Source: Narcine bancroftii | Taxonomy: Eukaryota | Length of the DNA stretch: 64,000 nucleotides | Assembly: GCF_036971445.1 (NCBI RefSeq) | Contig: NC_091479.1 | Location: 80,228,001 to 80,292,000, forward strand | Direction of reading: 5' to 3' | In this document: in pieces, positions 3,439 through 46,863 of the stretch | Position numbering within the stretch: position 1 is the first letter of the stretch | Layout: each line of letters starts with the position of its first letter | The notes under the pieces: model-generated | Databases searched by the model: none | What the model saw: only the letters and a program-made list of their open reading frames with translations | Told to the model about the DNA's origin: nothing | Position numbers and translations under genes: made by a program

Positions 3439-3747
3439 ACTCCCCCGTCTTTATAAATTTTCTACCTATGTCTTTTATTGCTGCTACCACTTTCCCACAG
3501 TTCTTTATAAATTTATATAGGTCCAGGCAACAACAGGGGCTGAAGGGCTCATACTATGCTGTACATAATGCTTAATGTTATAATTAGGCATGATTAATTT
3601 TATTTAAATACAAGATCATAATAAATTGATCAGGACTTGGTAAATTGATACAAACTTTATACATTTTAAATCTTTTGTTTCCTTCAAGTTCCTGCACTCA
3701 CGCAAAAATGTCATCAGCGCATTACTACTTTGTCCCTGGATAGTCCA

Positions 3748-3920
3748 TGTTCCTTTCACACTGGGCTAATCAGCACGCAGCTGTCAGATGACTCTAGGGA
3801 TGATACACCCTACCTAGACGGTCCATCCCCGGGGTGATTTGATGCCTAAATGCTGATTCGTGAGTGTTCACACTGGCTCTTTAACTGGTATATTGGCTGT
3901 GTGCCAGCGTGAAAGGGGCA
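3748..3920. mobile_element. Small MITE with CCTTTCACACTGG termini (Harbinger-like)
   Basis: CCTTTCACACTGG (3752-3764) vs CCAGCGTGAAAGG (3904-3916) is a 12/13 inverted repeat; an internal TTCACACTGG copy lies near 3867. The superfamily call is inferred. Confidence 0.45.
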
Positions 3921-6900: not shown

Positions 6901-7939
6901 CTGCAAAATTATTGGAGGCTTTGGTGGCAACTAAGATTCTTTTTAGTAGAACAGAAGAAAAAGAGGTGACTATAAGGTTTTTGCTCTCCATGGTGACCTG
7001 TTCACTGTCTATCATTACATCTCGGGGTCATTCTCCACACACCCACTACAGCTCTGCATCGTGACAATAACACAAATCTGCAAAAGAATAACAGCAGCTG
7101 CATTTCTACTATTGCTTACATGTGGCAGGAGAGAAGGTATTGTAGAAAAATTCTGATCAGGGAAATTCTGTGCAGAATTCTTGAGCCAGCCAGTTTCAGC
7201 TTTCCCTAACATGTCCCCCTTGTTTCACATGTGACTGCCCAATTGTAAATGAGATTAGAATTGTGAAGGAAAAATATACAAAAACAGAAAATAAATGGAA
7301 AAGAAACAGGAAGCATATGGCCAGATCAATCACAACCTAAGGATTGAGCAGGCAATTTAATGTTTTACGTGAACCAAAAAAAATGAAATGGGCCTCTCCA
7401 GGGTTAGGAGAGTGATAGGAGTGTAAAGGAATTTAACTGATTATCTAAAAACTATAATGGGGATGGCTGAAAACTATTACAGATAATAGAAAACAAATGA
7501 AATATGAAGAACATTTGGTTAGGTAAGGCAATTGAAGCATAATACTGAAATGCAAGTAACCAGTACAAGGAAAAACAAGACAAAGTCCTTTATCACAAAC
7601 TCTGTCAACACTGAACATTCCAAGCTAGTGTTTTGGTGAACAGTGAAAGAAATCTTTCCAAGATCAAAAACCAAAAATGTCCCCGCTAATGGGAACCTAG
7701 TTCTAACATTTTCTTGCCAGAATATTTTTAAATTCTCATTTCCATTTTGTGTTGTTTTTATGGATGTCTGTGTCTTGAAATATATTTTCCAATCTCAAAA
7801 TTACCTGCATCATACATGCATGGAAAATATATTTTCTAAAACCAATTTATTTCAAAGAACTAGAAAACATGCATACTTTGTACAAAATGTTACATTTTAA
7901 AGTACTTGCATCCTGTAAATGATAAGTATTTGCATATAT

Positions 7940-9439: not shown

Positions 9440-12400
9440 TCAAGTCAAGTTTATTGTCATCTGACTGCACAAGTACAACCTGACGAAACAGCATTCTCTG
9501 GTCCTTGGTGCAAAGCACACAGATACACAACCAGACGTAATGCCCATACAGACAAACCATACAGATGCAGGAGAGTATTCATATATACAAATAAATACTG
9601 TTTTGTAAATTTGAGAGTCTCAGATTGTTAGTATGAGCAGTTCATTTGATGGTTCAGCATTATCACTGCCAGTGGGAAGAAGCTGATCCTCGGCCAGCTC
9701 TGATGCTCCTGTGTCTCTTTCTCAACAGGAGCTGCTGAAAGGTGCAGGGTGGAAGGGACAACTGCAGCAACTGTACCACATGTAATGTAACTGGCCAGGC
9801 TGCTCTCGGTCGAGCTCTTGTAGAATGATGACATAATGGTGTCTGGTAGCCTTGCCCGCTTCAGTCTTCTCAGGAAGTGCAGTCGCTGTTGCACCTTCCT
9901 GACAAGTGAGATTTGTGTCCACAATAGGTCACGAGTCAAGTGAACTTCAAGGAATTTGGTACTCTCCACTACAATTATTGATGTGTAGTGGAGGGTGGTC
10001 GTTCCTGGTCTTCCTGAGGTCCATGATTAATTATTTCCTTCACCTTGGTAACGTTGAAATTCAGGTTGTTACTCTTGCACTATATCAGGAGATTTTCCAC
10101 CTCTTCTCTGCAGTGCGACTCCTTGTTATTGCTGAAGAGGCCAATTACTGCAGCAAACAATGACACAGTTGGAACTGGATCTGACTGTGCAGTTGTGGGT
10201 CAGTAGCATGAACTGGAGTGGGCTCAGCACACAATGCTGAGGTGTGCCCGTGCTCACCGTGATGGTGCTCGATGTTTTACCACTGACCTGGAGAGACGAG
10301 TCTTTCCGATAGGAAGCCCAAAATCCAGCTGCAGAAAGGGGTTTTGAGTCCCAATGAAGACAGCTTCTCCACCATCCTCTGGGGAATGATCATTTTAAAT
10401 ACGAAACTCAAGTTGATGAATAATAGCCTCCAGGTGGCAGGATGGTGTGAAGGGGCATGATTATAGTATCATCTGTGGAATGGTTTCTTCTATATGTGAT
10501 TTGAAATGAGTCTAGCATCTTCGCTCTGGGTGGTATGCTTTGATCAGGGTCAGTCTCAAGGGGAGGCATTCACTGGGATCCCCCTGTAGTGCGCGTCGAA
10601 AGAACCAAAGACTTGTTGATCCAAACCAAGGCTTTTATTAACTAAAAGACTGAAGCATATCACAAGTAGGTCAACCAGTCCAGAATGAACTGGTCTGGCT
10701 AGGAGCAATCCTTTAAGACCTGCCAGTAGGTGTGACTACACTCTCAGCCAATCACAGTCATCCTACACTACAATCTGTACATATACACATTGGTGATAGA
10801 ATGTGTACTATCATATTCACCTCTTCTTTTAGAACCAACCCCAGGGTGGATGGAGGTTAGGGGCTGTACTGGTCAGGGGGCCTGACCATCCGGCGTGACC
10901 GCCAGGATCAGAGTCACTGGAGTTGTGTCGCCGGCAGGCCCATTGGGTGTGGCCACTGCTTCGCTCAATTCCTCAATGGCATTGTCAACAGTCTGTCCTG
11001 AGCTAGTGGGGTCCCTCTGTTCAAGCACATGACCTGGGGGAGAAGGAATAGGGGGAGGTTGGGTTAAAGACACTGCTGCGCCTGATCTGGCTTGGGCTAG
11101 GTCCCTTACCGAGACTGTCCTCCCGCCCGTCTGGGTACTCAACATAGGCATAATGCGGGTTCGCGTGGAGCAGAGTCACTCGGTCAACCAAGAGGTCGTT
11201 CTTTGAGGACTGGAGCGGGAACCGTGAGCCATGCCGGTATGGTCGTAATGGTGGCATTATCTCTTTTGACTTGCCCATTATCGCGTGGGTTATAGCTGGT
11301 CCTGCTTGAAGCAATACCACGCTCCAGAAGGTACTGCTGCAGCTCTGGGCTCATAAACGAGGACCCCTTGTCACTGTGGATGTAACTGGGGTACCCGAAG
11401 GTGGTGAAGATGCTGTGCAGGGCCTCTATAACTGAGGAGGCAGTCATGTCCGAGCAGGGCACAGCGAATGAGAAGCGGGAGTACTCGTCGATAGCTGTAA
11501 GGATGTAGGTGTTACGGTTGGTCGATGGTAGAGGCCCCTTGAAGTCTACGCTGAGACGCTCAAAGGGGTGGGTGGCTTTGATGACGTGGGTGTTCTCCAG
11601 TTGGAAGAAGTGAGGCTTGCACTCAGCGCACATCGGGTCATGGAGCGAATCTCCTCGACTGTAGGGCAGGTTGCGAGCTTTGACAAAGTGTGCGAACCTA
11701 GTGACCCCTGGATGACAGAGCTCCTCATGGAGTTTCTGCAGCCTGTCCAGTTGTATGTTGGTGCAAGTCCCCCTGGAAAGCACATCTGGCGGGTCGTTGA
11801 GTTTACCAGGCCGATACGGTATGTCATAATTAAAGGTGGAGAGCTCGATTCTCCACCTGGCAATTTTTGTCATTCTTGATCTTACCTCATTGGGTATTGC
11901 TAAACATGAAGGAGACTGTGCATTGGTCAGTCAGCAGTGTAAAGCGCCTGCCAGTGAGGTAGTGTCTCCAATGATGTATTGCTTTGACTATGGCCTGGGC
12001 ATCCTTCTCAACAGAGGAGTGTTGGCTCTCAGGACACTGGAGGGTTCTGGAGAAGAAGTCTACCAGCCGGCCGCCCTGGTTCAAAGTGGCTGCCAGTGCA
12101 AAGTCAGACACATCGCTCTCGACTTGGAATGGAATGGACTCATCGATGGCATGCAGCGTTGCAGCAGCGATGTCCGATTTGATGTGGTTGAAGGCTGCTC
12201 TGGCTTCGGTTGACAGGGGGAAGGAGGTGGTCTTGATTAGTGGCCGTGCCTTGTTGGCATAGTGTGGAACCCATTGGGCATAGAAAAAGAAAAAACCCAG
12301 GGAGCGTCTGAGTGCCTTCTGGGTGTGTGTGGAGGGAGGGGGGGGGCAAGTCCATGAGGGGACGCATGCAGTCAGGGTCTGGCATGACCACCCCCGTTCT

Positions 12401-14680
12401 CCACCACACAGCCCAGAATTGCGAGCCGTGGTCCAGAAGACATACTTTTCAAAATTATAGGTCAAGTTCAACCGAGTTGCGTCTGAAAAAATTTCTCAAG
12501 GTTGGCATCATGATCCTCCGTGTTATGGCCGCAGATGGTGATATTGTCCAGATACGGGAAAGTAGCAGTCAGCCCGTTCTTGTCCACCATCCGGTCCATT
12601 TCCCACTGGAAGACCGCAACGCCATTTGTGACCCCAAAGGTACCCTGAGGAATTGATACAGCCGCCCATTCGCCTCGAAGGCTGTGAAAGGTTGGTCTTC
12701 TCGGCAGATCGGGAGCTGATGATAGGCCGAACGTAAGTCAATGGTGGAAAATGTGGTGATCTGATTCACCACATCCGTGATCCGAGGAAGGGGCTCCGCA
12801 TCCAGGAGAGTGAAGCAGTTGATTGTCTGGCTGTAGTCAACCACCATCCGCGGCTTCTCCCCGTTTTTAACAACCACCACCTGGGCCCTCCATGGACTTG
12901 AGCTAGGTTCAATAATGCCCTCATCTAGCAGTCTGCGAACCTCGCTTGTGATAAATTTCCTGTGTTCATAACTATATTGCCGGCTTTTAGTGGCCACAGG
13001 CTTCCAGCCAGGCTGCCACTGGCAGGAGGTTTCCGGGGTGGAGTGGTTACAGACAGAGAGTGGAGCGTGAGGCCCCCCAAAGTGCAGGGAAACGATTTGA
13101 AACTGGCACTGAAAATCCAGTCCCAGCAGTGCATGGGTGCACAATTGGGGAAGGACTAATAGTTTGCCGCCGGCCATTTTGGAGCGACAGACTACAGCAA
13201 AGTGGCCGTTTTTAAAGCACTTTTGGCACCTGGCTTTTCTCACCGGGCACTGGGACCTGCTGTGCTTGTTCCTCTTGAAGAAATAACATTTTGGGGTTGC
13301 ATTGGGCAGCGTAGTGGCAGTAGTAGGGTAGAGGGAGGGGATCCTACTTACATCAGAGTGTGGGGTCCAGCCCCGAGAGTACATGTCCATACTTAAAAAC
13401 CATAGTCTCCATCATCTTGGCGATCCAGATCACGTCCTCTAGGTTTTCTCCCCCGTGCTCTAGCAGGCGCTGCCTCACCTCATTCGATCGAACCCCAGCC
13501 ACATAGGCATCCCAAATCAGATTGTCTGTGGTCTCTGCAGCAGTTCTGTCTGTGCAGGCACAGTCCCTACCCATTGCCCTTAGTGCCTGAATATAAGCTC
13601 TACAGGACTCACCGGGCTGTTGCCTCCTTGTAGCAAGTTTGTACCGAGCGTAGACCCTGTTCACTGGTTGCTCGTAGAGCCCTTTCAGCACCTTCATGGC
13701 TGCGGCGTAAGTGGTCGCATCCTGGTCACTCTGGTAGACTCTCGGGGGACACCATAGTCATCAATATTAGTAGTTGATGGTTGTCCTCTATCACGGCAGG
13801 ATCAGAGAGCTGTAGGTATGTTTCAAAGCATCTCACCCAGTGCTTAAAGTCATTCAAGGCTGTAGCTGTCTGTGGGTCGATGTCGAGGCGTTCCAGCTGT
13901 AGCATACGCTCCATCCCTTCAAAATTTTTTAGTTAATAAAATTATAGTGCGTGTTGAAAGAACCAAAGATTTGTTGATCCAAAGCAAGGTTTTTATTAAC
14001 TAAAAGACTGGAGCATATCACAAGTAGGTCGACCAGTCCAGAATGACCTGGTCTGGCTCGGAGCAATCCTTTAAGATCTGCCAGCAGGTGTGGCTACACT
14101 CTCAGCCAATCACAGATATCCTACACTACCATCTGTACATATGTAAATATACATATTGGTGATAGAATCTGTACTATCACACCTCTCCCCCACCATCCAC
14201 CCATGAAGTGTTGTGGTCCCCATACATTCGCGGCCATTGCTCACTGTAAGACCCGCCCCCATCCGCTTGACTAGCATGCGTCAAGCATCATTAGCGTCTA
14301 GCATAATACTCGCTAGTGACTCTGGACACAATAAAAGCAGTGCATTCAACTGCTACGTCGGAGGAGGTTTACATCCATTCAGCAAGTAGGCCACCAGCAC
14401 CCCACCCTAGCTGTTAGGCCACCAGCCCAACTGAGTGTTGGACTATGCCCCCACAACCCCAGTTACCCTAATTCCCCCTCATCACTCATTCTGGTGCCGA
14501 CCCTGGCTTTGATTCTTTCCATCACCAGATGCTCAAAGCATAATGATGAGATCAGTGCCACAGGTTGGTAGTCATTGAGGCCTGTTATTGTTGTCCTCTT
14601 GAACACTGGGATAATGGTGGGTGTCTTGAGTCCTATGGGAATGTTGGACTGCTGCAGTGAGGTGTTGAAGAGTTATCTAT
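9440..14680 (-). mobile_element. Rex1/Babar-like LINE remnant (9440-10584 plus 14182-14680), split by the Gypsy insertion
   Basis: ORF 9628..9969 KFLEVHLTRDLLW..VRKVQQRLHFLRRLKRARL; CAAGTCAAGT-type tail at ~9441; related + strand copy at 22096-23165. Confidence 0.7.
10585..14181 (-). mobile_element. Ty3/Gypsy LTR retrotransposon with both LTRs, internally deleted and frameshifted (gag-PR remnant-RT-RH-IN)
   Basis: LTRs at 13943-14181 (5') and 10585-10815 (3'), ~92% identical by eye; PPT at 10816-10831; flanks CCCC/CCTC. Gag with CCHC knuckle (CQKCFKNGHFAVVC), RT (WRAQVVVV..DYSQTIN..DLRSAYHQ), RNase H (ESDVS..AATL), integrase (HPG..CAEC, DFKGPLP, DEYSRF, HSDKG). Confidence 0.95.
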
Positions 14681-19957: not shown

Positions 19958-20015
19958 ATGAAGGCACTTAGTCTTCTTCTTCTTGTCATTGCTGGTATCC
20001 ATGGAAATCCTTCAG
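19958..20015 (+). CDS. Gene A coding exon 1 (signal peptide MKALSLLLLVIAGIHGNPS)
   Basis: ATG in an ACAATGA context downstream of TATAAA; hydrophobic core; donor G|GTACAA; paralogous to 35821-35875. Confidence 0.88.
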
Positions 20016-23000
20016 GTACAAAAGCTTGGTTTTCTGGAACTTCACTAACCCAACACACTTCAGTGTCCAGCACTTTGGAGAGAGTAGCCATCAGCATCTA
20101 GAATAGTTCCGAAGAGTGGCAGGATATACATTAGTACTAAATTGTCAACACTATTATCCAATTAAGGTTGAATTACAGTTTAATTTGTAATTATTGACAA
20201 GTCCCTCCATTACTTCACCCTTCGTGTAGTGGTTTTCAATCGATATGTTGTCTTGTATTTCCACTTATAGTTTAGACATCTAACCACGGATGGAGCATTT
20301 GCATGAGTTAAGGAAACCTTATAGGGTAAAAGTTATTGAATATGTTGTTTCTTAAATTTGAGGAAAATAAGGGGAAACCACATACTTAATTTGTCCTTGG
20401 AGCTGTCAAAAACCTGTGATTTCGTCCTCTATGAAGGTAAGGGTTGCAACTGTGTTCATAGCTAAGTATTTTTTGGGGCACAAAACTAAAATTTTCATTC
20501 CAAGAGTAAGAATTTTTCACTGCAATGTTCACAATTACCTAATTTGTAATTGATTCCATCTCCTATAAGACAATAATGTTTGCTAAATTCAATGATATTC
20601 TTTTTTTACAGTGCAAAAACCTGATGATCTTAGACCTGGTAAGTCGCTGTAAATCTATATCATAAAGTAAAATTTATCACATATTGGTAGATAAACAAAG
20701 CAATGCGCTATGATTAAAAATCAAAGAAACAGCAGAGGCTGGAAATCTGAAGTAAAGACAGAAAAACCAACGGGCCAGAACTCTGATGGAGAGTCTTAGA
20801 TCTCAAACATGAACTTGGAATTTCTTTCCACAGATGCTGCCTGACCCACTGAGGGTTTCCAGTATCTTCTGTTTTTAACAATGTTATTTTACGATTGGTA
20901 ACATTGTGCTATTAATTTCTATACAAGGATACATTAAATGAGTGAGTCCATGTAATGTAGAATTTACACCCAATTAACCTACATCCCTGATAGGTTCCAA
21001 ACAGTAGGAGGAAAAAAACCCACGCAGTCATGGGGAAAACATACAAGCTCCTAACAGACAGCACGGGATTCGAACCCTGGTCCCGATCACTTGCGCTGTA
21101 AAGGCTTTGCGCTAACTTCGAAGCCAACCGTGCTGCCCAAGAGAATCCCAAGAAATTCCAGAATTGTTATCAGCCGATATTCTACTTGTACATTTCAGGA
21201 GCGCCACAGGCAGAGACATGAGCAGAAACGCTGGATACGTTTCTTTCTCCCTACACTGTAGACCCCTAGCCCAATTGTACTGTCCCAATGTTTCTGGATT
21301 TAAGTACAATTCAGTTGGAATAACTTAAACATTTGTATTGTTTAATAACTACTTAAAACTCACTCTGAAACTGTTCAGCATTCTGAGATGTAAGGCATCT
21401 ACATGTTACTGTGCTGATACATGGGGAAACAACTACAGCCCATTTATAGCTCTGCACTTTGTAAGTTCGTTTTGTCCTATGTGAAACATGTCAACTTGAT
21501 TTAAATATTTTCTAAGGCTATTTTCGCCAAGTTTGCTGACAATACAAGGATAAATGGGAATGTAAATTGTTCAGAGAGCATAAAAAGGGAGTAAAGGGGG
21601 TGGGAGGTCACAATTTAGCAGGAATATAAGTGATCATGCAGGAGCAACAGATGATCGAGAAGAGTGCATATTTTATTCTTATTTAAGAGGGGTTATTCAC
21701 TAAAAGCAGATGAGAGATGGTGTATTTTATTGCTGAGTAATAATGGGTTGTCTTGTGAGGATATGAATGAAGATCTTGGGAAGTTTGATTGCCATTTCAT
21801 AGGTATTTGGTGAGATCATACCTGGAGTATTGTGTACTGTTTTGATCTCCTTACCCAAGAACAGACTATTTGCACTCGATTGATTCCAGAGATTGCATTG
21901 AAAAGCAAAAAAAGACAACATATACTGTGGAAAGGAATTGTCAACCTTCCTGCATCAAGACCCTGCACCAGTCTCGATGCAGGACCTTCACCAAAAGGTT
22001 TAAATTTCCTTTCCTTCCCACACATGCTGCTTGACTCGGTGTGTTTCTTTAGCAATTTGTTTTAGGATCATCTTTAATAATTTTATCCAGTTGAGCCTTC
22101 GCCAGAGGCTGATGGAGAAGCTGCCCTCACTGGGATTCCACACCCCTCTCTGAAACTGGATTCTGAATTTCCTAACAGAAAGGCCACAGTCTGTCTGGGT
22201 TGGTAGCAGAATGTTGAGCACTGGTGGGCTCAGCCTGCTTGTGTCCACACTACTGACCCATGGCTACATCACCAGATCCGGCTCCAACTGTGTCATCAAA
22301 TTTGCAGATAACACAACAGTCATTTGGCCTCATCAGCAACAATGATGAGTTGCACTATAGAGCAGAGGTGGAAAATCTCGTGAAATGGTGCGAGAATAAC
22401 AACCTAAGTCTCAATGTGGACAAAATGAAGGAAATGATCATGAACTTCAGAAGGACCAAGAATGACCAGCCTTCACTATACATCAATAACTCTATAGTGG
22501 AGAGTAGAGAACACCAAGTCACGTGACATCTCCTCACTTGTCAGGAAGGCACAACGGTGACTGCTCTTCCTGAGAAGACTGAAGCAGGCAGGGCCTACCG
22601 ACCACCATCATGTTAATCTACTCCATGAGCTCTATCAAGAGTGTCCTGGCCGGCAGCATTGCAGTGTGGTATGATTGCTGCAGAAAAATGCATTGAAGGT
22701 CAATCTACAGGGCCATAAGAGTGGCAGAGAGGATCAATGGAGTCTCTTCCCCCCACCCCCCCCACCCCGCCAACAGTGTGGTCTACTGGGATCGTTTCCT
22801 GGAGAAGGCATGCAAAATCATTGAGGATCCCTTCCACCCTGCACTCAGCATCTTTCAGCTGCAACCATTGGGGAAGAGATAAGGGAGTATCAGAGCCAGT
22901 ACCACCAGGCTGAGGAGCAGCTTCTTCCCACAAGTAATGAGAATGCTGAACGACCAAAGGAACTGCTCACACTAACTATCCGAGACTCCCATATGTATGA

Positions 23001-26000
23001 AACAATATTTACTTATTTATTTATATAAATGAAATACTTGTCCTGCATATGTATTGTTTGTCTGTATGTGTGTTATGTGTGAGTGCATGTTTTGCACTGA
23101 GGACCAAAGGATACTGTTGCATTGGGTTGTACTTGTGCTATCAGATGATAATAAACTTGAGTTGATTTAAACAGTTCCTTGTATTGAGCTCTGACAGATT
23201 GAATAATCCCTCCCCAAAAAGGTGCTGAATTCATGTCCAACACTTGTCTCTTTAAAGATTTCCATCTGTACTTTTATTATAATTTATCCCTGGTGATTTA
23301 GAAATGATTGTACTCTATTTCAGAAGATCGCTGGGTGAATGAATATGATGACAAACTGCTTTATACCTGTCCAAAATCTGAAACTATCAGTACAATTTCA
23401 AGGTGAGTTACGAAAGGTCTCCGGACAGTAATCTGATGACAGATTTAAATTTTATGATGATCGTATTGCTTTGAATGCATGTGAACTTCTTCTTTCAACT
23501 ACCTCATGATATCATCTGTGGGGAATGGTCACATCAACTTCACCCACTTCCACACTGTTTTAGAGTATAAAAATTACATCCTTTGGAATAATGCTCATGG
23601 AATAGTAATAATTCAGTGCTCCTCCTGCACATTTCAGATGATGTTTTCTGGAGTAAATGGAGTAGACTTTCTTCATCCGAGTTGATCACTTTAATTGAAT
23701 AAACATTTTTGCGAATTTACAAATCTGCACCCAAGTTCCAGGCATCCTAAAAACTGCAGTTCTCTTAAAATGCCTCGTACTTTCTGTTCCAGCCAGCATC
23801 ACAGTTATTATGAGGACCGTCTGTGGGATTTCCAGTGTCAGGAGACATTCAACCAGCAGCCATCTTGTGTATGGAGTAACTACGTGAACAGCTTTGATGA
23901 AGAGTTCACGTTCACCTGCCCATTTGACTCCATTATTAGTGGTGTAGAATCTTACCACCATGACAAGCACGAGGATAGAAGGTACTTTGGAAAATATTGG
24001 GTTTATTCTCATCAACTTTTGCCTCTGTTATTTTAAAACTATATTTCATTGGTAAATGTGAACAAAAACTGACAAGGTTAATAAATTCTATTTGATATTA
24101 GAGCCATTTTCTAACCTTCACCTCTGCTTGTTGCCTGAATGTTTCTGCCAACAATACGTGGGCTTGGCGTTCCTTCTTGTTCTCTTACTGTGCACCTCTG
24201 TGTGTCTCCCCGCAGAACATTTCTCTTTGAGGGCAATCAGCGCACAACAGTGGTTAGAACATTAATGAATCCAAAAGCATACCACATGGTACACACAGTT
24301 CTTAAAGGAACACTCACAGTAATCTTTTAACTACTCCAGTGAATACTTCAGTTAATAAACACTGAAAGTATTAAGAAATCCAACTGCAAAAGATCAATAG
24401 GCATCCTTGATCTTAACAGAAGAAAGTAAAGGTTCTGATCATCAGCTTCCAATCTCTTTGATGAAAGGGATGGACTGAAAATCTGCTAACATGACACCAA
24501 TGTTTAAAAGGAGAGAAACCCTGGACTAAGTATTGATGAGATAGTTAGGTTAGGACTAGTGCTGGGCAAGTTGATGGAAACATTCTGAGGGGTAATAAAA
24601 CTTTTTTTTTCCGACATTTTCTGAAATATTCAATTTCAGACTGTGGACATTGCCCATCAATTGCTTGTGTGTTTTGAGGAGGTAACAGGGAGGGTAGATG
24701 TAGTCACATGGATTTTAGCAATTGTTTGACACCCATAGTAGACTAATCAGAAATCTGAAAATGCACAGGATTACAGAGGAGCTGAGGAAGACTAATCCAT
24801 TGTTTCAGGGATCTAGGACACAGTATGAAAGAATTGTGAATGTGAATAGGATATAGTACATTTTCTTTCTTAAAGCATAACCTCTTGGTATTGAATAAGT
24901 GAGACAATTGAGGCCTACTTGATCCCTTGTGAAATGTTGTGCACGTCCGCAGATAACTGAAAAAACCAAGAACATCTTTTAGCGCATGTGTTTCCTGCAG
25001 ATTTCTCTTTGCACTTCCTGTATATTGCTGCACCAAGAAACTGTAATAAGAAAGGATCTGAAAAGTGAAGATGTCCAATGAAACAAAGTTGACCAAAGCA
25101 TTAAATGCCGATAAACTTGTGTTTTTGCAATAAACCACAGTAACTGAAATGACGAAGGGACACAGTTTTCGATCGGAGCACAGGAAAATTAAAGGTTACT
25201 GTTTGGGGTGCTGGCTTATGCCTTGTAACTGTCAAAGTGGGAGGGTGCAAGATAATCCAATCACTTTAGAGGCCTTGTGTTATGTCCTCGGTTGTGCCAT
25301 CGGAGGTCTTAATAAACACTCAGAGAAGCTTGTAAGTTGACAGCGCAAACTTTTACTTACATCAGTAGTAGTAAGGCTGCTAGTCATGTATAAATACACT
25401 GTTGCACTGAGGATGCTCACCACTCAAGTACGATGCGGCTCTTACAGTCTTGTGGTGTTCATGCTCCAGCATAAAATAGTCCCAAGTTTTCTCTGTATAT
25501 GATACCTTGTATCTATGTCATTCACGATAAACAATATCATCCACCTTGAGGGTGAGGACAATGATTCCTGCTCAAAGTGAAACAGGATGAGATTACCACT
25601 GTTAAACTTGCATAGGTTTGGATTCATACATCATCTTAGCCCAGATTTGACCATTCTAAGCAAAAAAAAGTGTTTCACTTGGTAAGATGACATAAGGAGA
25701 TAGATATTTTGTAAATCACTTTAATTGATCAGGCTTGGAAATTCTAGAAGTTACAGAAATCAGAAGTCAAGCCAATCTATTTATCACAACTGTTCTTTTT
25801 ACCAAGGATTATAGATTAACCCTCATCTAGGCCATGGACAAAATTCTTTGGTGACATAACAGGATTCCTTCTGGTAAATAGTGTGCATTTTCTCAGTCAA
25901 AAGTAGAACAGAGAATGCCGATGGAATAGAAGGAAAACCTCTGTGATTCCCATATATTAGTGTCTACACATTGCACCTCGTTTCACTAAGAACCCACAAG

Positions 26001-26810
26001 AGGACAGACAGAACACTTTCATTTCTTGCTTAGTGCTACAGAGACAGAGGTTCAGAGTCGTGACACCTTGCTCTTGGTACTCATGTCACTTTATTTTCTC
26101 CCCCCCTCCCCCCAACACATACTTTACCACATGAATACAATTAAAAATTCTTTTACGTGGCTAATCTTCTTTATCCTCGTTATTTTTTCTTAACACATTT
26201 AGGGTCCTTATGTGTTCCCTTTTGTGTCTTAAAAGATTGTTTCATTCATTTGTTTTATCTTTCTCAGATGGAAATTTTTATGCTGCCGTGTTAACAATAC
26301 TTGCAACAAACTCTGTTCCTGGACAGACTATCTCAACCTTTTTGACGATTACTTCAGCTGGCAAGTTCCTGAATCCAATTACATTGTGGGTGTTTCCAGC
26401 TACCATGATAATTATCGCGAGTAAGTAAATTGCAGTTGATAACATTTTTACTTTGCATTTGATTTTAGGCATATTATGCTGTATTCAAATAATATGAGAG
26501 TACATCTGAATTCGGCCAAATTGTCAGGATGAAAAAGACATTTGGAAAACCTGTATTGAGGTACCAATGGAGGTCTTTTAGTATAATCTATGCGACAGAG
26601 GTCTTGCTAGAAATATAAATGTCCGTAGCAAGTAAATCAAGTTTTTATATTATTGTCCATAGATTTTCGTCTGGATTTTAAACAGTAGTTATATATCATC
26701 TCCAAATATTTTCAAGAAAATTGTTTTATTATATTTTAATTTGCTGCATTTTCCCCACTCTCAGGGACCGTCGATGGAAGTACCAATATTGTGAGCAAGA
26801 AGCATGTTGA
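19958..26810 (+). CDS. Gene A: hemagglutinin/amebocyte aggregation factor-like (dermatopontin family) secreted protein, 183 aa; join(19958..20015,20612..20638,23324..23402,23793..23981,26268..26420,26765..26810)
   Basis: Hand-spliced at GT-AG sites with consistent phases (1,1,2,2,2), 552 nt open: MKALSLLLLVIAGIHGNPSVQKPDDLRPEDRWVNEYDDKLLYTCPKSETISTISSQHHSYYEDRLWDFQCQETFNQQPSCVWSNYVNSFDEEFTFTCPFDSIISGVESYHHDKHEDRRWKFLCCRVNNTCNKLCSWTDYLNLFDDYFSWQVPESNYIVGVSSYHDNYREDRRWKYQYCEQEAC*. It has a signal peptide, three S-x-H-x4-EDR-x-W-x-F/Y-x-C dermatopontin-type repeats and 10 Cys. Every exon except the microexon is mirrored in gene B. Confidence 0.92.
20612..20638 (+). CDS. Gene A 27-nt symmetric (phase 1-1) microexon, VQKPDDLRP
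   Basis: Strong acceptor TTCTTTTTTTACAG and perfect donor G|GTAAGT; in frame with no stop. No paralogous support because gene B lacks this region. Confidence 0.7.
20912..21138 (-). mobile_element. tRNA-derived V-SINE-like element
   Basis: Reverse strand GGGCAGCACGGTTGGC (A box) ... GGTTCGAATCCC (B box) ... TTGTATGTTTTCCCCATGACTGCGTGGGTT core; further copies at 31715-31975 and 55730-55920. Confidence 0.75.
22096..23165 (+). mobile_element. Rex1/Babar-like LINE, 5'-truncated, in gene A intron 2
   Basis: RT C-terminal remnants (KFAD, EVENLVKWCENNNLSLNVDKMKEMIMNFRR); 3' tail AATAAACTTGAGTTGA; empty site in gene B at ~42125. Confidence 0.85.
23324..23402 (+). CDS. Gene A exon 3 (EDRWVNEYDDKLLYTCPKSETISTIS)
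   Basis: TACTCTATTTCAG acceptor, AG|GTGAGT donor; same length (79 nt) as 42272-42350. Confidence 0.9.
23793..23981 (+). CDS. Gene A exon 4 (dermatopontin repeats 1-2)
   Basis: Lies inside ORF 23695..24036; TTTCTGTTCCAG acceptor, AG|GTACTT donor; 189 nt as in gene B. Confidence 0.92.
26268..26420 (+). CDS. Gene A exon 5 (WKFLCCRVNN...SYHDNYR)
   Basis: TTTTATCTTTCTCAG acceptor, GA|GTAAGT donor; 153 nt as in gene B. Confidence 0.92.
26765..26810 (+). CDS. Gene A last coding exon (EDRRWKYQYCEQEAC*)
   Basis: TTTTCCCCACTCTCAG acceptor; TGA at 26808-26810; completes the third EDRRW repeat. Confidence 0.9.
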
Positions 26811-26903
26811 TTGATTTTGTTTAAGAGAAATGTTCACTCGGGATCAGATGACCTTTCAATTAATATACAGTGTACTTTGAAAAATTCATAAACTATCAAA
26901 GAA

Positions 26904-26909
26904 AATAAA
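26904..26909 (+). terminator. Gene A polyadenylation signal
   Basis: AATAAA about 95 nt after the stop; position conserved in gene B (46951). Confidence 0.6.
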
Positions 26910-27282
26910 ATGTATACCGCAAAATATTTTCTAAGTTATTTTAATTTGTGAGCAAGTTACGCTGGTCAAAATAAGATGGATTGGCAAGTAGTTTCATGTT
27001 TACGGATAGTATCGTAATTGTCTGTTCAAGTACAGTAAAGGAAAAATATATAATTAAAAATCACTCAAAGGGTGATCACGTCTGAAATCTACCCAAAGAA
27101 ACTAGCTGTTCTTTTCTCTCAAGTGAGAATGATAATTTACCTCAACCAATAGTTTATCAGATTTATAACCATAAATCTGTCAATGGTTGTCATATAAAGT
27201 CCAGTTTTATGATCTTTTCTAACCCATTTCTGTGAGATATAGACCTCTCAAAAGATTTAGTTATTGAGTAAGGTAATCTGCT

Positions 27283-35820: not shown

Positions 35821-35875
35821 ATGAAAGCACTCCTTCTTTTTCTTGTCATTGCTGGTATCCATGGAAAGACTTCAG
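35821..35875 (+). CDS. Gene B coding exon 1 (signal peptide)
   Basis: MKALLLFLVIAGIHGKTS; donor G|GTACAA; aligns to gene A exon 1. Confidence 0.88.
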
Positions 35876-38800
35876 GTACAACAAATGCTTCTGGAATTTC
35901 ACTAACCCAACACACTTCAGTGTTGAGCACTTCAGAGGGAATAACCATCAGCATCTAGACAATGCCGAGGGTGTAGCATGGCTAACATCAGGTTAACAGA
36001 ACTTTAAATAGAAGGGCGATACTTTTTATCCTATTGTCTTGGCCATTAACCAATTAAGGTGGAATTACAGTTTAATTTGGAATTTTTGACTGGTTTGCAA
36101 GCTGGTTATTCACTGGAATGAACCTCACAGATTGAGTTTTCGCACGAGCGAAGGAAACCTTAATACTGTAGAGAGAAAAAGTAATTGAGTATATTTTTTC
36201 ATAAATTTGAGGAAAATGAAATGAAACCACATGAATTGTCCTTGGTTTGTCAACAAAACAACTGTGATTTAGTCCTCTATGCAGGTAAGGTTTGCAACTG
36301 TGTTTAAGTATTTTTTGGGCTTGAAAATGATGTTTGTGGTGGGGGAGGTGGGGGAACAAGTCATGTGATGCTCTACGGTTAGGATGTGGAAGTTATCCCT
36401 CCTGGGAAAACTGCTAAAAAAAGTTGAGTTATGCTTTAAGTGATTAAAAACTGTTTAAATTATGTTTAAACATCTACACAACACCAGTTCTCCATGAAAA
36501 GAAAAACCTGCTGCTGCCTTATCTGGAGCCCATCATGATGGGAAGACGAGAAAAGTAAAGAGAAGCAGGGAGCTAGCACTCAGGGTGGTCTGAGGGCTCC
36601 TCTTTCGTCGCTGCTCTCCCACAGTGACAGAGAGATGGTGTTGAAGAAGAGGAAACCAGAAGTGATGCACCGCGCATCCATGAACAATGGAGGCCTTCAG
36701 CAGACTCGGGGTCACAGACATTGGGCAGTGAAGAGAATGAAGATCCAGAAGGAGGAGGAGAAGAAGAAGAGGTAAAGAAAATAAAAACAACTTGAACTGT
36801 GACAATTAGACTTAAAACCAAGTCTTAGGACATGTCTAATAATGAACTGTGGGTAAATGCAATGTGAAGTACTTGAGGTTGCTAATAAAATGAAGAAAAA
36901 ATTAACCAAGTTAGAAGGTTCAATGAAAAGAATGCAAGAAGACATGCAGCAAGTAGAGGATTGAATAACTACAGTAGAAGATACGACTACTGCTTTAACT
37001 ATGGAGAATAAGGAATTGAAACAAGAAGTGGATATATTGGAAAATTTAGTAAGAGAAACAATATTAAGATTGTGGGTCACAAAGAAGATGTAGAAAAGCA
37101 AGATATGATTGGGTTTCTCCTGCAATGGCTTCCTGAAATGCTGGGTGCTGAACATTTTGATCAACCAAGAGATTGAAAGAGTACACAGGGCTCTCAGACC
37201 CAAACTGTCTCCAACTCAAAAACCACAATCTATATGAATTAAATTTCTCTGGTACCAAGATAAAGAGAAGATTCTGTCTTTGGTAGCAGCAAAGGTGAGA
37301 TCGACTGGAAGACCCACTTGAGTATGAAGGTATTAAAGTAGTATTTAACCATGATATGTGCAGATTTATTAAAAAGAAGAGAATTCACTCCAGTTAAGAA
37401 GATTTTATGGGAGAAAGGATATGTTTGTTCTGGATCATCCAGCGACTTTGAAGATCTTCATAATGGGTGAAGGAAACAAGTTCTTTTTGAGCTATGCGAA
37501 GGCTGAGCAGTTTGTACAAAATCTTCCAATTTTTCAGAGGGAGTGAAGAGTGAAGATTTGTGAATGCTCTAACTTTGATGGACTAAACCAGTGGTTCTCA
37601 ACCTTTTTCTTTCAACTCATGTACCACTTTAAGTAATCCCTATGCCATTGGTGGTCTGTGATTAGTAAGGGATTGCTTAAGGTGGTATGTGAGTGGGAAG
37701 GGAAGGTTGAGAATCACTGCTCTAGACACAATTATTACTGAAATATTTTGCTTGAGAAAAATTGTCATTGGCCAATTTCCTTTGGAGTTATGAAACCGTG
37801 CACATAACGAAGTCAATTAGATATGATTAAAACAGTGGTTTTCAAACCTTTTCTTTCCAACCACATAGCACCTTAAGCAATCCCTTATTAATCATAGTGC
37901 ACCTATGGCATAGGGAATACTAAAGGGTTATGTGAGTGGAAAGAAAAAGGTTGAGAACCACTACCCTACCGATGCACCTCATGCCTCTGGATGCCGCAGA
38001 TCGCCACCCACCACCAGAGAGCACCATCGGTCAACATTCACATCTCACAATGCTTGCAGAGGATGCCGCTGGCTGCATCTCTGCCGTTAGGGAATGACGA
38101 CTCGGACCCCGAGATGGTCCTAGCAGCTACCACCCTGACCAGGGATATCCATCACAGTCAAAATCAATAGGTAGGTAACAAAGTGCCTAATCGACAGTGG
38201 CGGCACAGAGAGCTTTATTCACCCAATCATGGCCACTCCCTAAAACTCAAAATCCACCCCACCACCTTCTCTATCGCCTTCGCCACCTCGGACCGAACTA
38301 TTAATATCCTCGGGCACTGCTCTGCCGATCTGACGTTGGGGTTGGGGGGAGAGACATAAACCGTGTTCAGGCTCCTGATCATGCCCAAACTCTGCGCCCC
38401 AGTCCTCCTGGGTTTAGACTTTCAATGCCACCTGGAGAGTGTCACCCTCACCTTCAGGGGGTTCCTACTCCCACTCACACTTCACAGTGTGCCGTCCAAC
38501 CAACCCCGGCCAACCTGCGGCCTCTCCAATCTGCACATTGCCCCTCCCGTCCTCTTCTCACACCTCACGTCAGACTGCAAGCCAATAGCTGCCAGAAGTA
38601 GGCGCTATTGTGCCGTGGACAGAGATTTCATCAGGGCAGAGGTGCAGCGGCTTCTGGCGGAAGGTGTCATAGAGCCCAGCAACAATGCATGGAGAGCTCA
38701 AGTCTTGGTGATCATGGATTGCACCCAGATGGAAGCCTACCTCTTACCGAGGATAGCCAACATGGTCAATGAGATAGCCCACTACCGGGTCTTCTCCACT

Positions 38801-41800: not shown

Positions 41801-44800
41801 CACCTGGCCGGCTGTCAATCAGCTGACTTGAATGGACCAAGCTCCATCCAGTCAGCTGCCAATCACCCTTCGGGATATAAGCTAGATCCGGCCCTTCGAG
41901 GCCAGTCTCAGTGCTTGCAACAGCATTCTCACAGCCAGCTCTGTGGAAGTTTATGTTGAATAAAACCTGTAGAACATTCTTTAAGCTTTGTGTGTGTTGC
42001 TTCTATTCGATAGCGCACCACAGACCCTGAACCAGTCTCAATTCATGATCTGCACCAAAAGATTTAAATTTCCTTTCCTTCTCACAGATGCTGCTTAAGT
42101 GTGTTCCTTTTAATAAGACTATCTAGTTGAGTCTGAATCAGATCCTTTGTATTGAGCTTTGACATATTGACTATTTCCTCACCGATAAGCAGTGTCTTGA
42201 AAGACTGTTCGATCTGTACTTTTATCATAATTTATACCTGGCAAATTAGAAATGATTGTACTCTATTTCAGGAAATCACTGGGTGAATGAGTATGATGAA
42301 AAACTGCTTTATACCTGTCCCTCGTTTGAATCTATTGTTTCAATTTCAAGGTGAGTTACAAAAAGCTCTTGCACGGTGATCTAGTGGAAGCTTTAAATTC
42401 TACCATGATTGTATTACTTTTAATGCATGTGAATTTCATTCTTCAGTTACCTCGTGATATTATCTGTGGGGTAATCGTCATATCCTCCTCACCCATTTCT
42501 ACTCAAATAACATCGTTTGGGCTTTGGAATAATGCACATTGTTTCAGTACTCCTTCTGCACATTTCAGATGATGTTTTTTGGAGTAAATAGGGGGGGGGG
42601 AACTTTCTCCATCTGAGTAAATTGATTTAAATGAATAAGTATTTTTGTGTATTTACAGTCCTGCACCTAAGTTCCAAATGACCTAAAAATTGCAGTTCTA
42701 ATAAAATGCCTCATACTTTCTGTTCCAGTCGGCATAACAATTACCACGAGGACCGTCAATGGGATTTCCAATGTCAGAGATCATTCGAAGAGCTGCCAAC
42801 TTGTATGTGGACCAATTATGCAAATGACTTTGATAAAGAGTTCACGTTCACCTGCCCATTTGACTCCGTTATTAGTGGTGTAGAATCTTACCACCATAAC
42901 TATTATGAGGATAGAAGGTACTTTGGAAAATATTGGATTTATTCTCATCAATTTTTGCCTCTGTTATTTTAAAACTATATTTCATTGGTAAATGTGAACA
43001 AAAACTGACAAGGTTAATAAATTCTATTTGATATTAGAGCCATTTTCTAACCTTCACCTCTGCTTGTTGCCTGAATGTTTCTGCCAACAATACGTGGGCT
43101 TGGCGTTCCTTCTTGTTCTCTTACTGTGCACCTCTGTGTGTCTCCCCGCAGAACATTTCTCTTTGAGGGCAATCAGCGCACAACAGTGGTTAGAACATTA
43201 ATGAATCCAAAAGCATACCACATGGTACACACAGTTCTTAAAGGAACACTCACAGTAATCTTTTAACTACTCCAGTGAATACTTCAGTTAATAAACACTG
43301 AAAGTATGAAGAAATCCAACAACTGCAAAAGATCAATAGGCATCCTTGATCTTAACAGAAGAAAGTAAAGGTTCTGATCATCAGCTTCCAATCTCTTTGA
43401 TGAAAGGCATGGACTGAAAATCAGCTAACATGACACCAATGTTTAAAAGGAGAGAAACCCTGGACTAAGTATTGATGAGATAGTTAGGTTAGGACTAGTG
43501 CTGGGCAAGTTGTTGGAAACATTCTGAGGGGTAATAAAACTAATTTTTTTCCGACATTTTCTGAAATATTCAATTTCAGACTGTGGACATTGCCCATCAA
43601 TTGCTTGTGTGTATTGAGGAGGTAACAGGGAGGGTAGATGTAGTCACATGGATTTTAGCAATTGTTTGACACCCATAGTAGACTAATCAGAAATCTGAAA
43701 ATGCACAGGATTACAGAGGAGCTGAGGAAGACTAATCCATTGTTTCAGGGATCTAGGACACAGTATGAAAGAATTGTGAATGTGAATAGGATATAGTACA
43801 TTTTCTTTCTTAAAGCATAACCTCTTGGTATTGAATAAGTGAGACAATTGAGGCCTACTTGATCCCTTGTGAAATGTTGTGCACGTCCGCAGATAACTGA
43901 AAAAACCAAGAACATCTTTTAGCGCATGTGTTTCCTGCAGATTTCTCTTTGCACTTCCTGTATATTGCTGCACCAAGAAACTGTAATAAGAAAGGATCTG
44001 AAAAGTGAAGATGTCCAATGAAACAAAGTTGACCAAAGCATTAAATGCCGATAAACTTGTGTTTTTGCAATAAACCACAGTAACTGAAATGACGAAGGGA
44101 CACAGTTTTCGATCTGAGCACAGGAAAATTAAAGGTTACTGTTTGGGGTGCTGGCTTATGCCTTGTAACTGTCAAAGTGGGAGGGTGCAAGATAATCCAA
44201 TTACTTTAGAGGCCTTGTGTTATGTTCTCGGTTGTACCATCGGAGGTCTTAATAAACTCTCAGAGAAGCTTGTAAGTTGACAGTGCAAACTTTTACTTAC
44301 ATCAGTAGTAGTAAGGCTGCTAGTCATGTATAAATACACTGTCGCACTGAGGATGCTCACCACTCAAGTGCGATGCGGCTCTTACAGTCTTGTGGTGTTC
44401 ATGCTCCAGCATAAAATAGTCCCAAGTTTTCTCTGTATATGATACCTTGTATCTATGTCATTCACGATAAACAATATCATCCACCTTGAGGGTGAGGACA
44501 ATGATTCCTGCTCAAAGTGAAACAGGATGAGATTACCACTGTTAAACTTGCATAGGTTTGGATTCATACATCATCTTAGCCCAGATTTGACCATTCTAAG
44601 CTAAAAAAAAGTGTTTCACTTGGTAAGATGACATAATGAGATAGATATTTTGTAAATCACTTTAATTGATCAGGCTTGGAAATTCTAGAAGTTACAGAAA
44701 TCAGAAGTCAAGCCAATCTATTTATCACAACTGTTCTGTTTACCAAAGATTATAGATTAACCCTCATCTAGGCCATGGACAAAATTCTTTGGTGACATAA

Positions 44801-46863
44801 CAGGATTCCTTCTGGTAAATAGTGTGCATTTTCTCAGTCAAAAGTAGAACAGAGAATGCCGATGGAATAGAAGGAAAACCTCTGTGATTCCCATATATTA
44901 GTGTCTACACACTGCACCTCGTTTCACTAAGAACCCACAAGAGGACAGACAGAACACTTTAATTTCTTGCTTAGTGCTACAGAGACAGAGGTTCAGAGTC
45001 GTGACACCTTGCTCTTGGTACTCATGTCACTTTATTTTCTCCCCCCGCCCCCCCAACACATACTTTACCACATGAATACAATTAAAAATTCTTTTACGTG
45101 GCTGATCTACTTTATCCATATTTTCTTTTCTTGACATGTTTAGAGCTCTTACATGTTCCCATTTGTATATCTAACAGATCGTTGCAGTCATTGTTTTATC
45201 TTTCTCAGATGGAAATTTTACTGCTGCCGCGTTAACAATACTTGCAACAAACTCTGTTCCTGGACAAATTATGTCAATGCTTTTGACCAGTACTTCAGCT
45301 GGCAAGTTCCTGAATCCAGTTACCTTGTGGGTGTTTCCAGCTATCATAATAATTATCACGAGTAAGTAAATTACTGCTTGTTAACATTTTTATTTTGCTT
45401 TTCTTTTTGGGCATATCATGCTGTATTAAAATAGACCAAGATGCATCTGAATTTGGCCAAGTTAGTAGGATCAAAAAGATGTTTGGAGAAACTGAATTGA
45501 GGCACTGATGCACCATCAAATACTTCAATGACTAGAGTTGTAGAGAAACTGATAGGCTTTTATTGAGAACAGACTGGAGGCATGTCCATATTGGTCAACT
45601 ATCCTGGACTGAGGAGGGAGCTGTGGCACAGTTACCTTTATTCAGAGGTCTGTGGGAGAAGCCTTAGGCATAGTCAGCAAGGGGCGTGTCCTAACACAGC
45701 CAAACATACATACAGTGGTTTACCACAGGTACCAATTGAGGCCCTTTATTGTACTCTCTCACTAGAAATAGAAACTTTTGTAGTTAGGAAATCAGGTTTT
45801 TATTATTGTGAAACATGAAAATCTGCAGACGCTGCGATTGTAGTAAAAACTCGGCCGGTCTCACAGTGTCCATAGGAGTTAAAGATATATTACCAACATT
45901 ACAGGCCTAAGCCCTTCCTCAGGGTATGAGCAAAGAGAAGGCAGGCACCTGAATAAAAAAAGTCTGGCAGAGAAGGAAATAAAGGGCAGGGGGAAGAGCG
46001 CAGGCCAACAGACATAAGGCCACAATTGGACAAGGATAGGAGGACAGGAGAGGAAAGGTGAGAATTGATAGGGGGAGGGGTTGGCTATACAAATGAAGAT
46101 CTAGAGGAAAGGAAAGATACGGATAGGGGAAGGAGAGAACCACAAGGGGGTGGGAGGAGGCTAATCAAATCTGGAGAAGTTGATGTTAATGCTATCTGGT
46201 TTCAGGGTGCCCAGACGTAATATGAAGTATTGTCCCTCCAATTTGCGGGTGGACTCAGTCTGTCAGTGCATGAGACCTCAGACAGACATGTGGGCAGTGG
46301 AATGGGGTGCAGAATTGAAATAGGTTGCCACTGGTACATCTCTATTAGTGCAGTGGACAGAGCAAAGGTACTCGACGAAGTAATCTCCCAGGCTGCATCC
46401 AGTTTCTCCAACGTAGAGGAGGCCACAATGGGAGCACTGGATGCAGTAGATGATCCCCCTGTAGACTCACAATTATTGCTTCAATTAGAAGTGGTAAGGG
46501 AGGTGTGGGTGCAAGTGTAGCATATCTTGGTATCATAGAGGTAGGTACTAAGGTACGATTGGTGGGAAGGTCAGACTGGATGAGGGAGTCACAGACAGAA
46601 CAACCACTGTAGAAGGCAGAGAGGGGTGGAGAGGAGACCATGTGTTTGGTCGTGTTATCATGTAATATATGGCAGAAATGGCAGAGGGCAATATGTTGGA
46701 TGTGGAGGCTGGTGGGGTGGTAGGGAGGTTTTTGATATCGTAGTAAGATCAAGTGTCTCCATTTATTTTCAACCAATTAATTATATTTTAATTTGCTGTC
46801 TTTTTCCTTATTCTCAGGGACCGTCGATGGAAGTACCAACATTGTGAACAACAGACATGTTGA
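35821..46863 (+). CDS. Gene B: hemagglutinin/amebocyte aggregation factor-like (dermatopontin family) secreted protein, 173 aa; join(35821..35875,42272..42350,42729..42917,45209..45361,46818..46863)
   Basis: GT-AG sites, phases 1,2,2,2, 522 nt open: MKALLLFLVIAGIHGKTSGNHWVNEYDEKLLYTCPSFESIVSISSRHNNYHEDRQWDFQCQRSFEELPTCMWTNYANDFDKEFTFTCPFDSVISGVESYHHNYYEDRRWKFYCCRVNNTCNKLCSWTNYVNAFDQYFSWQVPESSYLVGVSSYHNNYHEDRRWKYQHCEQQTC*. All 10 Cys are conserved with gene A. Confidence 0.9.
36360..37550 (+). mobile_element. L1/Tx1 5' region and ORF1 remnant in gene B intron 1
   Basis: Coiled-coil-like segment followed by SKRNNIKIVG (~37050) and EIERVHRALRP (~37170), typical of L1 ORF1. Confidence 0.75.
37589..37963. 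mobile_element. hAT (Charlie-like) palindromic MITE with ~131-bp inverted arms
   Basis: CAGTGGTTCTCAACCTTTTTCTTTC ... GAAAGAAAAAGGTTGAGAACCACTA. Arms 37589-37719 and 37833-37963 are reverse complements, and each arm is itself bounded by TIRs. Confidence 0.85.
37964..42022 (+). mobile_element. Decayed Gypsy LTR retrotransposon, same clade as 10585-14181; 5' end missing, 3' LTR at 41727-42022
   Basis: PR (LIDSG), RT (AWRAQVLV, DLKSAYHQ, PYLDNVIICG), RH, IN (LCHPGV..CQVCAEC, SIDFKG); PPT AAAGAAGGGGATGAA; LTR TGTGGTG..CACCACA with AATAAA at 41959. Confidence 0.92.
39986..40733 (-). mobile_element. Solo-LTR-like insertion splitting the integrase DFKG/PLPS motif
   Basis: Gypsy frame stops at TTCAAGGG (39985) and resumes at CCCCTGCCTTCCAC (40734); the insert has TGTA..TACA ends and a minus-strand AATAAA (~40089). 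No clear TSD. Confidence 0.6.
42272..42350 (+). CDS. Gene B exon 2 (equivalent to gene A exon 3)
   Basis: TACTCTATTTCAG acceptor, AG|GTGAGT donor; NHWVNEYDEKLLYTCP. Confidence 0.9.
42729..42917 (+). CDS. Gene B exon 3 (equivalent to gene A exon 4)
   Basis: Within ORF 42706..42972; same splice sites and length as 23793-23981. Confidence 0.92.
45209..45361 (+). CDS. Gene B exon 4 (equivalent to gene A exon 5)
   Basis: Within ORF 45153..45365; TTTCTCAG acceptor, GTAAGT donor. Confidence 0.92.
45506..45727 (-). mobile_element. Solo LTR (222 bp) in the last intron of gene B
   Basis: TG...CA; 5-bp TSD GGCAC/GGTAC; gene A has a single GGTAC at the empty site (26560-26564). Confidence 0.85.
45812..46728 (-). 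mobile_element. Penelope-like element 3' part (GIY-YIG endonuclease remnant)
   Basis: Minus strand IIYCIQCSHCGLLYVGETG near 46455-46400; absent from the equivalent gene A intron. Confidence 0.75.
46818..46863 (+). CDS. Gene B last coding exon (EDRRWKYQHCEQQTC*)
   Basis: TTATTCTCAG acceptor; TGA at 46861-46863. Confidence 0.9.

Follow-up and report, generated by a model that had tools for sequence, protein, structure and literature searches.

Here, we analyze a 64,000-nucleotide (nt) stretch of the genome of the ray Narcine bancroftii (assembly GCF_036971445.1, contig NC_091479.1, positions 80,228,001 to 80,292,000 of the forward strand), called the window below, which contains two tandem genes of the dermatopontin family. 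We find that one long intron is 99% identical between these two genes, while the other non-coding DNA of the pair is about 19% different. That the copies have recently exchanged DNA is nearly certain, and gene conversion between them is very probably how it happened. Conversion combined with selection that keeps the exon differences is the reading that we favor, with more reserve. According to this proposal, the old tandem genes would still exchange DNA by interlocus gene conversion, only in one long intron that is free of private insertions.

All coordinates are window positions; copy A denotes the upstream gene and copy B the downstream one, both on the + strand. A self-BLAST of the window gives one 3.3-kb block, in which 23246-26564 matches 42192-45505. 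Within it, a two-changepoint likelihood fit with a log-likelihood gain of 164 delimits a homogenized tract, 23971-26162, with partner 42907-45103. The fit served as the check for a bounded tract that the initial annotation of this DNA had suggested, and it places diverged DNA on both sides:

23971..26162, + strand: homogenized tract of copy A, the last 11 nt of exon 4 and the long intron to 105 nt before its end
42907..45103, + strand: homogenized tract of copy B, 18.9 kb downstream of copy A in the same orientation, from the base-by-base alignment
26163..26267, + strand: diverged intron end of gene A, 105 nt with 22 substitutions; the contig shared by both copies stops at 26162

The left edge is constrained to 23971-23981 within 2 log-likelihood units. 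On the right, identity falls off at 26163, 105 nt ahead of exon 5 (26268), where the annotation had estimated about 100 nt.

Over 23971-26160 (2190 nt), the base-by-base alignment with copy B contains 23 substitutions and 3 indels that make up 5 gap columns, i.e. 28 differing columns, which bears out the earlier estimate of an intron about 99% identical with 25-30 differences. The substitution divergence between the intron copies is 1.05%, to be compared with 10-19% in the exons. In the preceding 390-nt intron, A and B differ at 69 of 364 aligned sites (19%; Fisher p = 2e-41 against the tract). The last 105 nt of the long intron hold 22 substitutions (21%), and the corresponding counts are 35 of 154 sites (23%) at the beginning of the next intron and 43 of 288 (15%) in the 3′ untranslated region (UTR). 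The flanks had been described as far more diverged and carrying private insertions, and this is now quantified as 15-23% in the other introns and the 3′ UTR, with copy-specific insertions interrupting the A/B homology upstream of exon 3 and downstream of exon 5. The tract-bearing intron is the sole long intron without a private insertion. The longest identical run is 501 nt within the tract and 36 nt outside it. The protein counts of the annotation hold as well, exon 4 having 20 of its 63 codons different and the mature part 40 of 154 whole codons (41 of 155 if the codon spanning the exon border is included).

Expressed as Jukes-Cantor distances, the divergence is 0.011 in the tract and 0.21 in the pooled non-coding DNA outside, a ratio of about 1 to 20. 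Absolute dating was tried with the mutation rate of 7e-10 per generation given for the epaulette shark in the accessible text of PMC10587355. It yields 7.6 and 152 million generations, the second of which is implausibly old, and only the ratio was therefore kept.

We considered whether this similarity could be an artefact of assembly or polishing, with the reads of one intron used for both genes. Contigs of four sequencing runs (of nine from three studies) were placed on 23250-26900 at 80% likeness. The DNA run X1 is possibly the sample used for the assembly itself. It should be noted that contig depth is no copy number, that contigs drop variants, and that the differences listed are 40 of 110. 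On the flanks, X1 has separate A-type contigs, without differences and at depths of 9.1-10.2, and B-type contigs at depths of 6.0-7.2; that the A-type contigs are consistently the deeper ones is probably a matter of sampling, but may reflect a difference in copy number. In the intron, X1 has single merged contigs, 24017-25319 (depth 14.7) and 25462-26162 (depth 14.1). The depths expected are 14.9 and 14.3 for two copies with the listed differences, 16.3 for identical copies and 9.6 for one copy.

The first merged contig starts one base past a difference at 24016, and the second stops at 26162, the last base in common. A contig of A type only starts at 26133, 30 nt earlier, and this overlap is what is expected at a branch of the assembly graph if words of 31 letters are assumed. 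The intron contigs thus have nearly the summed depth and break at the tract edge, neither of which fits an artefact. Moreover, diverged B-type contigs were found on the flanks, yet in the X1 bins 24592-25201 and 25690-26055 no diverged second intron was present at the 80% threshold, only the merged contig. The artefact draws some support from the fact that no listed X1 contig runs across the whole tract and that, among the differences listed, only one of the 23 B-type intron substitutions (at 25175) was observed directly. A low share of transitions in the tract (11 of 23 substitutions, the preceding intron having 46 of 69) also speaks for it and is unexplained. A collapse would on the other hand not leave 26 scattered differences whose presence fits the depth. 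We conclude that the similarity is in the genome rather than made by the assembly; an artefact is unlikely, and we give it very little weight.

The intron could also be alike in both genes by purifying selection, i.e. it could hold a conserved element or RNA, with both copies barely changed since the duplication. No evidence in favor of this was found. Rfam gives no matches up to E 1 in 23000-27000, and the identity of 99% over 2.2 kb is higher than that of the exons. A six-frame comparison of the long intron with the rest of the window gave no match. A possible relic of a long interspersed nuclear element (LINE) reverse transcriptase near 24700-24850 was dropped, as it has no Pfam match. The tract does include a repeat that is informative in this respect:

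25278..25504, no strand assigned: 227-nt high-copy repeat with a 5-nt target-site duplication, the same element standing at 44218-44444; by eye it resembles a solo long terminal repeat

Its summed contig depth in X1 is 3,500-7,800, and at 11 of the 12 listed sites where the majority of the family carries another letter, B sides with A. The two copies have drifted from the family alike, which speaks against constraint: the shared decay means that the repeat decayed in a common ancestor of both introns, which then differ by only about 1%. Other members of the family continue with end letters different from those of the tract copies. The tract is recently shared ancestry of ordinary intron DNA, and constraint is unlikely, to the point that we hardly credit it. 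An intron that is some 20 times less diverged, present twice in the reads, bounded, and furnished with a partly decayed repeat implies a recent common ancestor at this place.

The tract copies lie in direct tandem orientation, 18.9 kb apart, an arrangement that also suits two unequal crossovers, in which an expansion to three copies via a hybrid gene is followed by a contraction that swaps the intron. One such pair of events can move 2.2 kb, and in a single genome it gives the same picture as conversion. It would need two crossovers near opposite ends of one intron as well as pairing of copies that are about 20% diverged, and the self-BLAST shows no third copy within the window. The 26 tract differences are also clumped (p 0.03-0.05 for the 501-nt identical run and p 0.01-0.03 for the spacing variance, under a null of uniform placement); the clumping weakly favors overlapping tracts that differ in age and, with the partly homogenized end of exon 4, suggests several layers rather than one pair of crossovers, which we hold to be improbable. 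According to 10.1101/135152, conversion tracts in humans are 250 bp long on average and conversion becomes slower with growing divergence of the copies, so that a single 2.2-kb event between 20%-diverged copies becomes less likely. With gene conversion, it would instead be repeated overlapping tracts that keep the intron divergence near 1%.

Both copies are intact multi-exon genes of the + strand with open reading frames throughout. Their mature parts are identical to the Narcine bancroftii RefSeq proteins XP_069759774.1 (A) and XP_069758843.1 (B), both named hemagglutinin/amebocyte aggregation factor-like, shortened to HAAF-like below. Whole-domain matches to Pfam DERM PF14704 score 164.5 and 163.2 bits (gathering cut-off 28.3), and the exon pieces match too. 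As judged from these matches, A and B are tandem dermatopontin-family (HAAF-like) proteins, predicted to be secreted; the agglutinin name is by similarity only. The three downstream introns are spliced GT..AG at the predicted borders in contigs of runs X5 and X9, which are guessed to be RNA and are not on record as such, and unspliced in the DNA run X1. X5 contains mainly A-type pieces, and X9 an A-type piece without differences and a spliced B-type piece carrying B letters in exons 5 and 6. The A-type to B-type contig depth is about 87 to 9.5 in X5 and about 19 to 34-59 in X9, a measure that cannot rank expression. With open frames and spliced contigs of both types, both copies are working genes. 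Their parts are as follows:

19958..20015, + strand: first coding exon of gene A, frame open and GT donor present; can be aligned to the N-terminal ends of shark and ray relatives and is signal-peptide-like by eye
20612..20638, + strand: 27-nt mini-exon of gene A with AG/GT borders; its peptide is present in XP_069759774.1
23324..23402, + strand: exon 3 of gene A, with a GT..AG junction to exon 4 in X5 and X9 contigs
23793..23981, + strand: exon 4 of gene A (DERM repeats 1-2, PF14704); the 5′ part strongly diverged, the 3′ part from about 23892 nearly homogenized
23982..26267, + strand: long intron of gene A, 2286 nt; a GT..AG joint skipping 2286 nt is seen in X5 and X9 and absent in X1
26268..26420, + strand: exon 5 of gene A, with open frame, PF14704 match and spliced contigs
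26765..26810, + strand: last coding exon of gene A with stop, from open frame and spliced contigs
35821..35875, + strand: first coding exon of gene B, with open frame; matches XP_069758843.1
42272..42350, + strand: homologue of exon 3 in gene B, from open frame and protein comparison
42729..42917, + strand: homologue of exon 4 in gene B, with open frame and PF14704 match
42918..45208, + strand: long intron of gene B, from alignment to copy A
45209..45361, + strand: homologue of exon 5 in gene B, PF14704; B-type letters in a spliced X9 contig
46818..46863, + strand: last coding exon of gene B with stop, from open frame and a spliced contig

The RefSeq model of gene A starts at the second exon and omits the predicted first coding exon 19958..20015. 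For the mini-exon 20612-20638 there is no counterpart in copy B, and no second match in the window exceeds 24 of 40 letters; some shark relatives carry the corresponding peptide in tandem copies, of which a Heterodontus protein has three and a Rhincodon protein two.

The last amino-acid difference of exon 4 is no more than about 10 nt from the left edge of the tract and belongs to a small island:

23962..23970, + strand: 9-nt island with five differences, DKH in A and NYY in B (42898-42906); the tract begins directly after it

In the roughly 70 nt before the island there are only two differences, neither of them synonymous. Of the third codon positions of exon 4, 12 of 33 differ in its 5′ part, which is above the intron rate (p 0.012), and 2 of 29 in its 3′ part; the proportion of synonymous differences, pS, is 0.66 and 0.06, respectively. 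None of the third positions differ in the 23 codons before the island (0/23), for which p is ~0.004 given the 21% rate in the remaining exon parts, the segment having been chosen after seeing the data. This pattern looks like an older conversion that entered the exon but spared the island. The island would be the most specific sign of selection at the locus, the placement of the tract alone being mildly unusual.

These observations have to be weighed against conversion without selection on the exons, in which the tract is the last long insertion-free block that can still pair, or one long tract that fell there by chance. The rest of the locus would then have escaped through drift and transposon insertions, and tracts would stop where mismatches begin. 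Escape via substitutions or insertions is a described neutral outcome (accessible text of PMC3924837 and 10.1101/135152), and private insertions do delimit the block. If a tract of the same length is placed at random in the uninterrupted homology block, 117 of 1139 placements (10%) avoid all coding differences. Divergence as high as in the exons is found in the 390-nt intron, the promoters and the 3′ UTR, and only one intron is homogenized. What neutrality leaves unexplained is why five differences crowd into 9 nt when the adjacent 70 nt have two, both non-synonymous, and why the left edge is so close to the last amino-acid difference; in addition, the slower-changing exons would be expected to stay in step longer than the intron. 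On balance, we consider the neutral explanation unlikely, though well short of negligible.

Under conversion with selection on the exons, tracts running into exon 4 or 5 would mostly be removed, because they would erase protein differences. This removal would leave the partly homogenized exon 4 end, the DKH/NYY island and the diverged stretch just ahead of exon 5; the short intron, flanked on either side by an exon of this kind, would thereby escape homogenization. Several results weigh against this reading. Besides the random placements, the diverged 390-nt intron and promoters, and the transition share and scarce directly observed B-type substitutions given above, the nonsynonymous divergence (dN) is 0.14 and the synonymous divergence (dS) 0.34, a dN/dS of about 0.4 that gives no sign of positive selection. 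The right tract edge lies 105 nt inside the intron and not at an exon border. The evidence base is moreover one assembly of one species, and the structure searches reported below give no solved relative that would place the loops. The initial annotation had read the locus as recent interlocus conversion between two proteins kept distinct by selection. Its first half is well supported, artefact and constraint both being unlikely. Its second half is plausible from the sequence, with intact, spliced genes and the exon 4 island in its favor and the 10% of random placements and the dN/dS of about 0.4 counting the other way.

The predicted protein consists of three internal repeats, and the model of P0046 is a confident all-beta structure with a mean pLDDT (predicted local distance difference test) score of 93. 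In the model, strands 83-92 and 97-106 of repeat 2 are joined by a hairpin loop that contains the island, and A and B differ also in the equivalent loops of the other two repeats, 1 and 3. The loops of A and B may bind a ligand. A search of the Protein Data Bank (PDB) by sequence gave no match under E 0.3. In the fold searches, Foldseek gave no match at E 0.001 and the best Z was 7.0, with weak beta-prism-type entries only, so that there was no ligand site to carry over.

Among 13 other shark and ray proteins, the island has KH (the A state) in 5 and YY (the B state) in 3, and the three loops of A recur together in 2 of the 13, a skate and a sawshark. Over exon 3 and the 5′ part of exon 4, 23 of 59 residues differ between A and B, whereas A has 10 and 11 differences to two skate proteins. 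Two residues of exon 5 are common to A and B and occur in none of five other ray proteins. The protein trees never place A and B as sisters; an A+B clade is not rejected in the approximately unbiased test (p-AU 0.22-0.27; 17 elasmobranch sequences, free of isoforms, near-duplicates and outgroups). B falls, loosely, with sawfish, stingray and the second copy of a houndshark. A larger tree with 26 sequences, from which one 383-residue fused record was left out, did not resolve the relation of A and B, and partition trees gave no settled age for their duplication. Among the 120 matches listed, of 143, a third protein search gave no additional clusters of sharks or rays.

On these data, it is possible, though we regard it as doubtful, that the pair is older than the split of the ray orders, perhaps than that of sharks and rays, and that it resisted conversion throughout, with the island as its specificity residues. 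Just as tentative is the picture of an ancient pair of recognition proteins, secreted, built of three repeats and each having its own set of binding loops. A pair of HAAF-like proteins is likewise present in each of two sharks (the two pairs being P0002/P0054 and P0005/P0007), and of these the Heterodontus pair clusters together, while the Mustelus pair does not. Run X6, which carries another organism label, was tried as a diverged relative and rejected: six of its eight listed pieces, read-length, 987 nt in total and at depth 2-3, are without difference from copy A, and the other two are B-type flank and the 227-nt repeat.

Elsewhere in the window, the first intron of gene B (about 36500-42000) contains a long private insertion. 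Reading frames at 38360-39505 match a reverse-transcriptase family (Pfam), and this segment, Gypsy-like by eye, resembles 11867-12751 on the other strand at 65%. Inside the same element, 39223-39404 and 40383-40564 form a 182-nt inverted duplication with 97% identity. Downstream, 49611-51273 and 51994-53693 are a tandem 1.7-kb pair with 71% identity, adjoined by a long minus-strand frame at 53193-54356 that is LINE-like by eye.

The locus may be compared with the primate L/M opsin genes, whose introns are described in the accessible text of PMC3213168 and PMC3924837 as being under conversion and far less diverged than the exons. The latter, a review, treats human and macaque opsins alike, takes a local divergence peak as the signature of selection under conversion, and states that insertions and substitutions end conversion. 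As in the opsins, tandem paralogues stand about 20 kb apart with intron divergence far below that of the exons, a local cluster of amino-acid differences lies beside homogenized DNA, and exon dN is not above dS; gibbon opsin exons are likewise without a dN/dS sign of positive selection. Unlike in the opsins, only one intron is homogenized here, the other non-coding DNA being about 20% diverged with private insertions. Moreover, for the opsins the same sources establish both the contrast between trees across species and what the kept residues do, whereas the ray pair is known from one genome's sequence.

The mammalian pairs BMP8A/B, DDX19A/B and TUBG1/2 are described in the accessible part of PMC2720389 as having introns homogenized for more than 100 million years, and its authors speculate on selection for homogenization. 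The ray genes are like them in being old duplicates with an intron nearly identical within the species; there, the pattern was shown across many mammalian genomes, whereas here it is seen in one species and the exons stay apart. Judged by the features visible within one genome, the locus thus appears to share those of opsin-type conversion, and would be a new elasmobranch case of a known process. No paper on conversion in these genes was found among titles and abstract openings, most subscription journals being outside reach.

The HAAF family name rests on a horseshoe-crab protein (cited in PMC8202022), and the accessible text of that paper proposes a role in the host-parasite response of salmon from expression and the horseshoe-crab namesake; our literature search found no test of any shark or ray HAAF-like member. 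The ray pair adds a sharply bounded elasmobranch example of a known pattern and leaves gene-conversion theory unchanged. Dating the duplication by the long intron would give a badly wrong age, and the intron copies will merge in assemblies from short reads. Should the exon differences indeed be kept by selection, the tract edge would point to three residues in a little-studied secreted vertebrate family.

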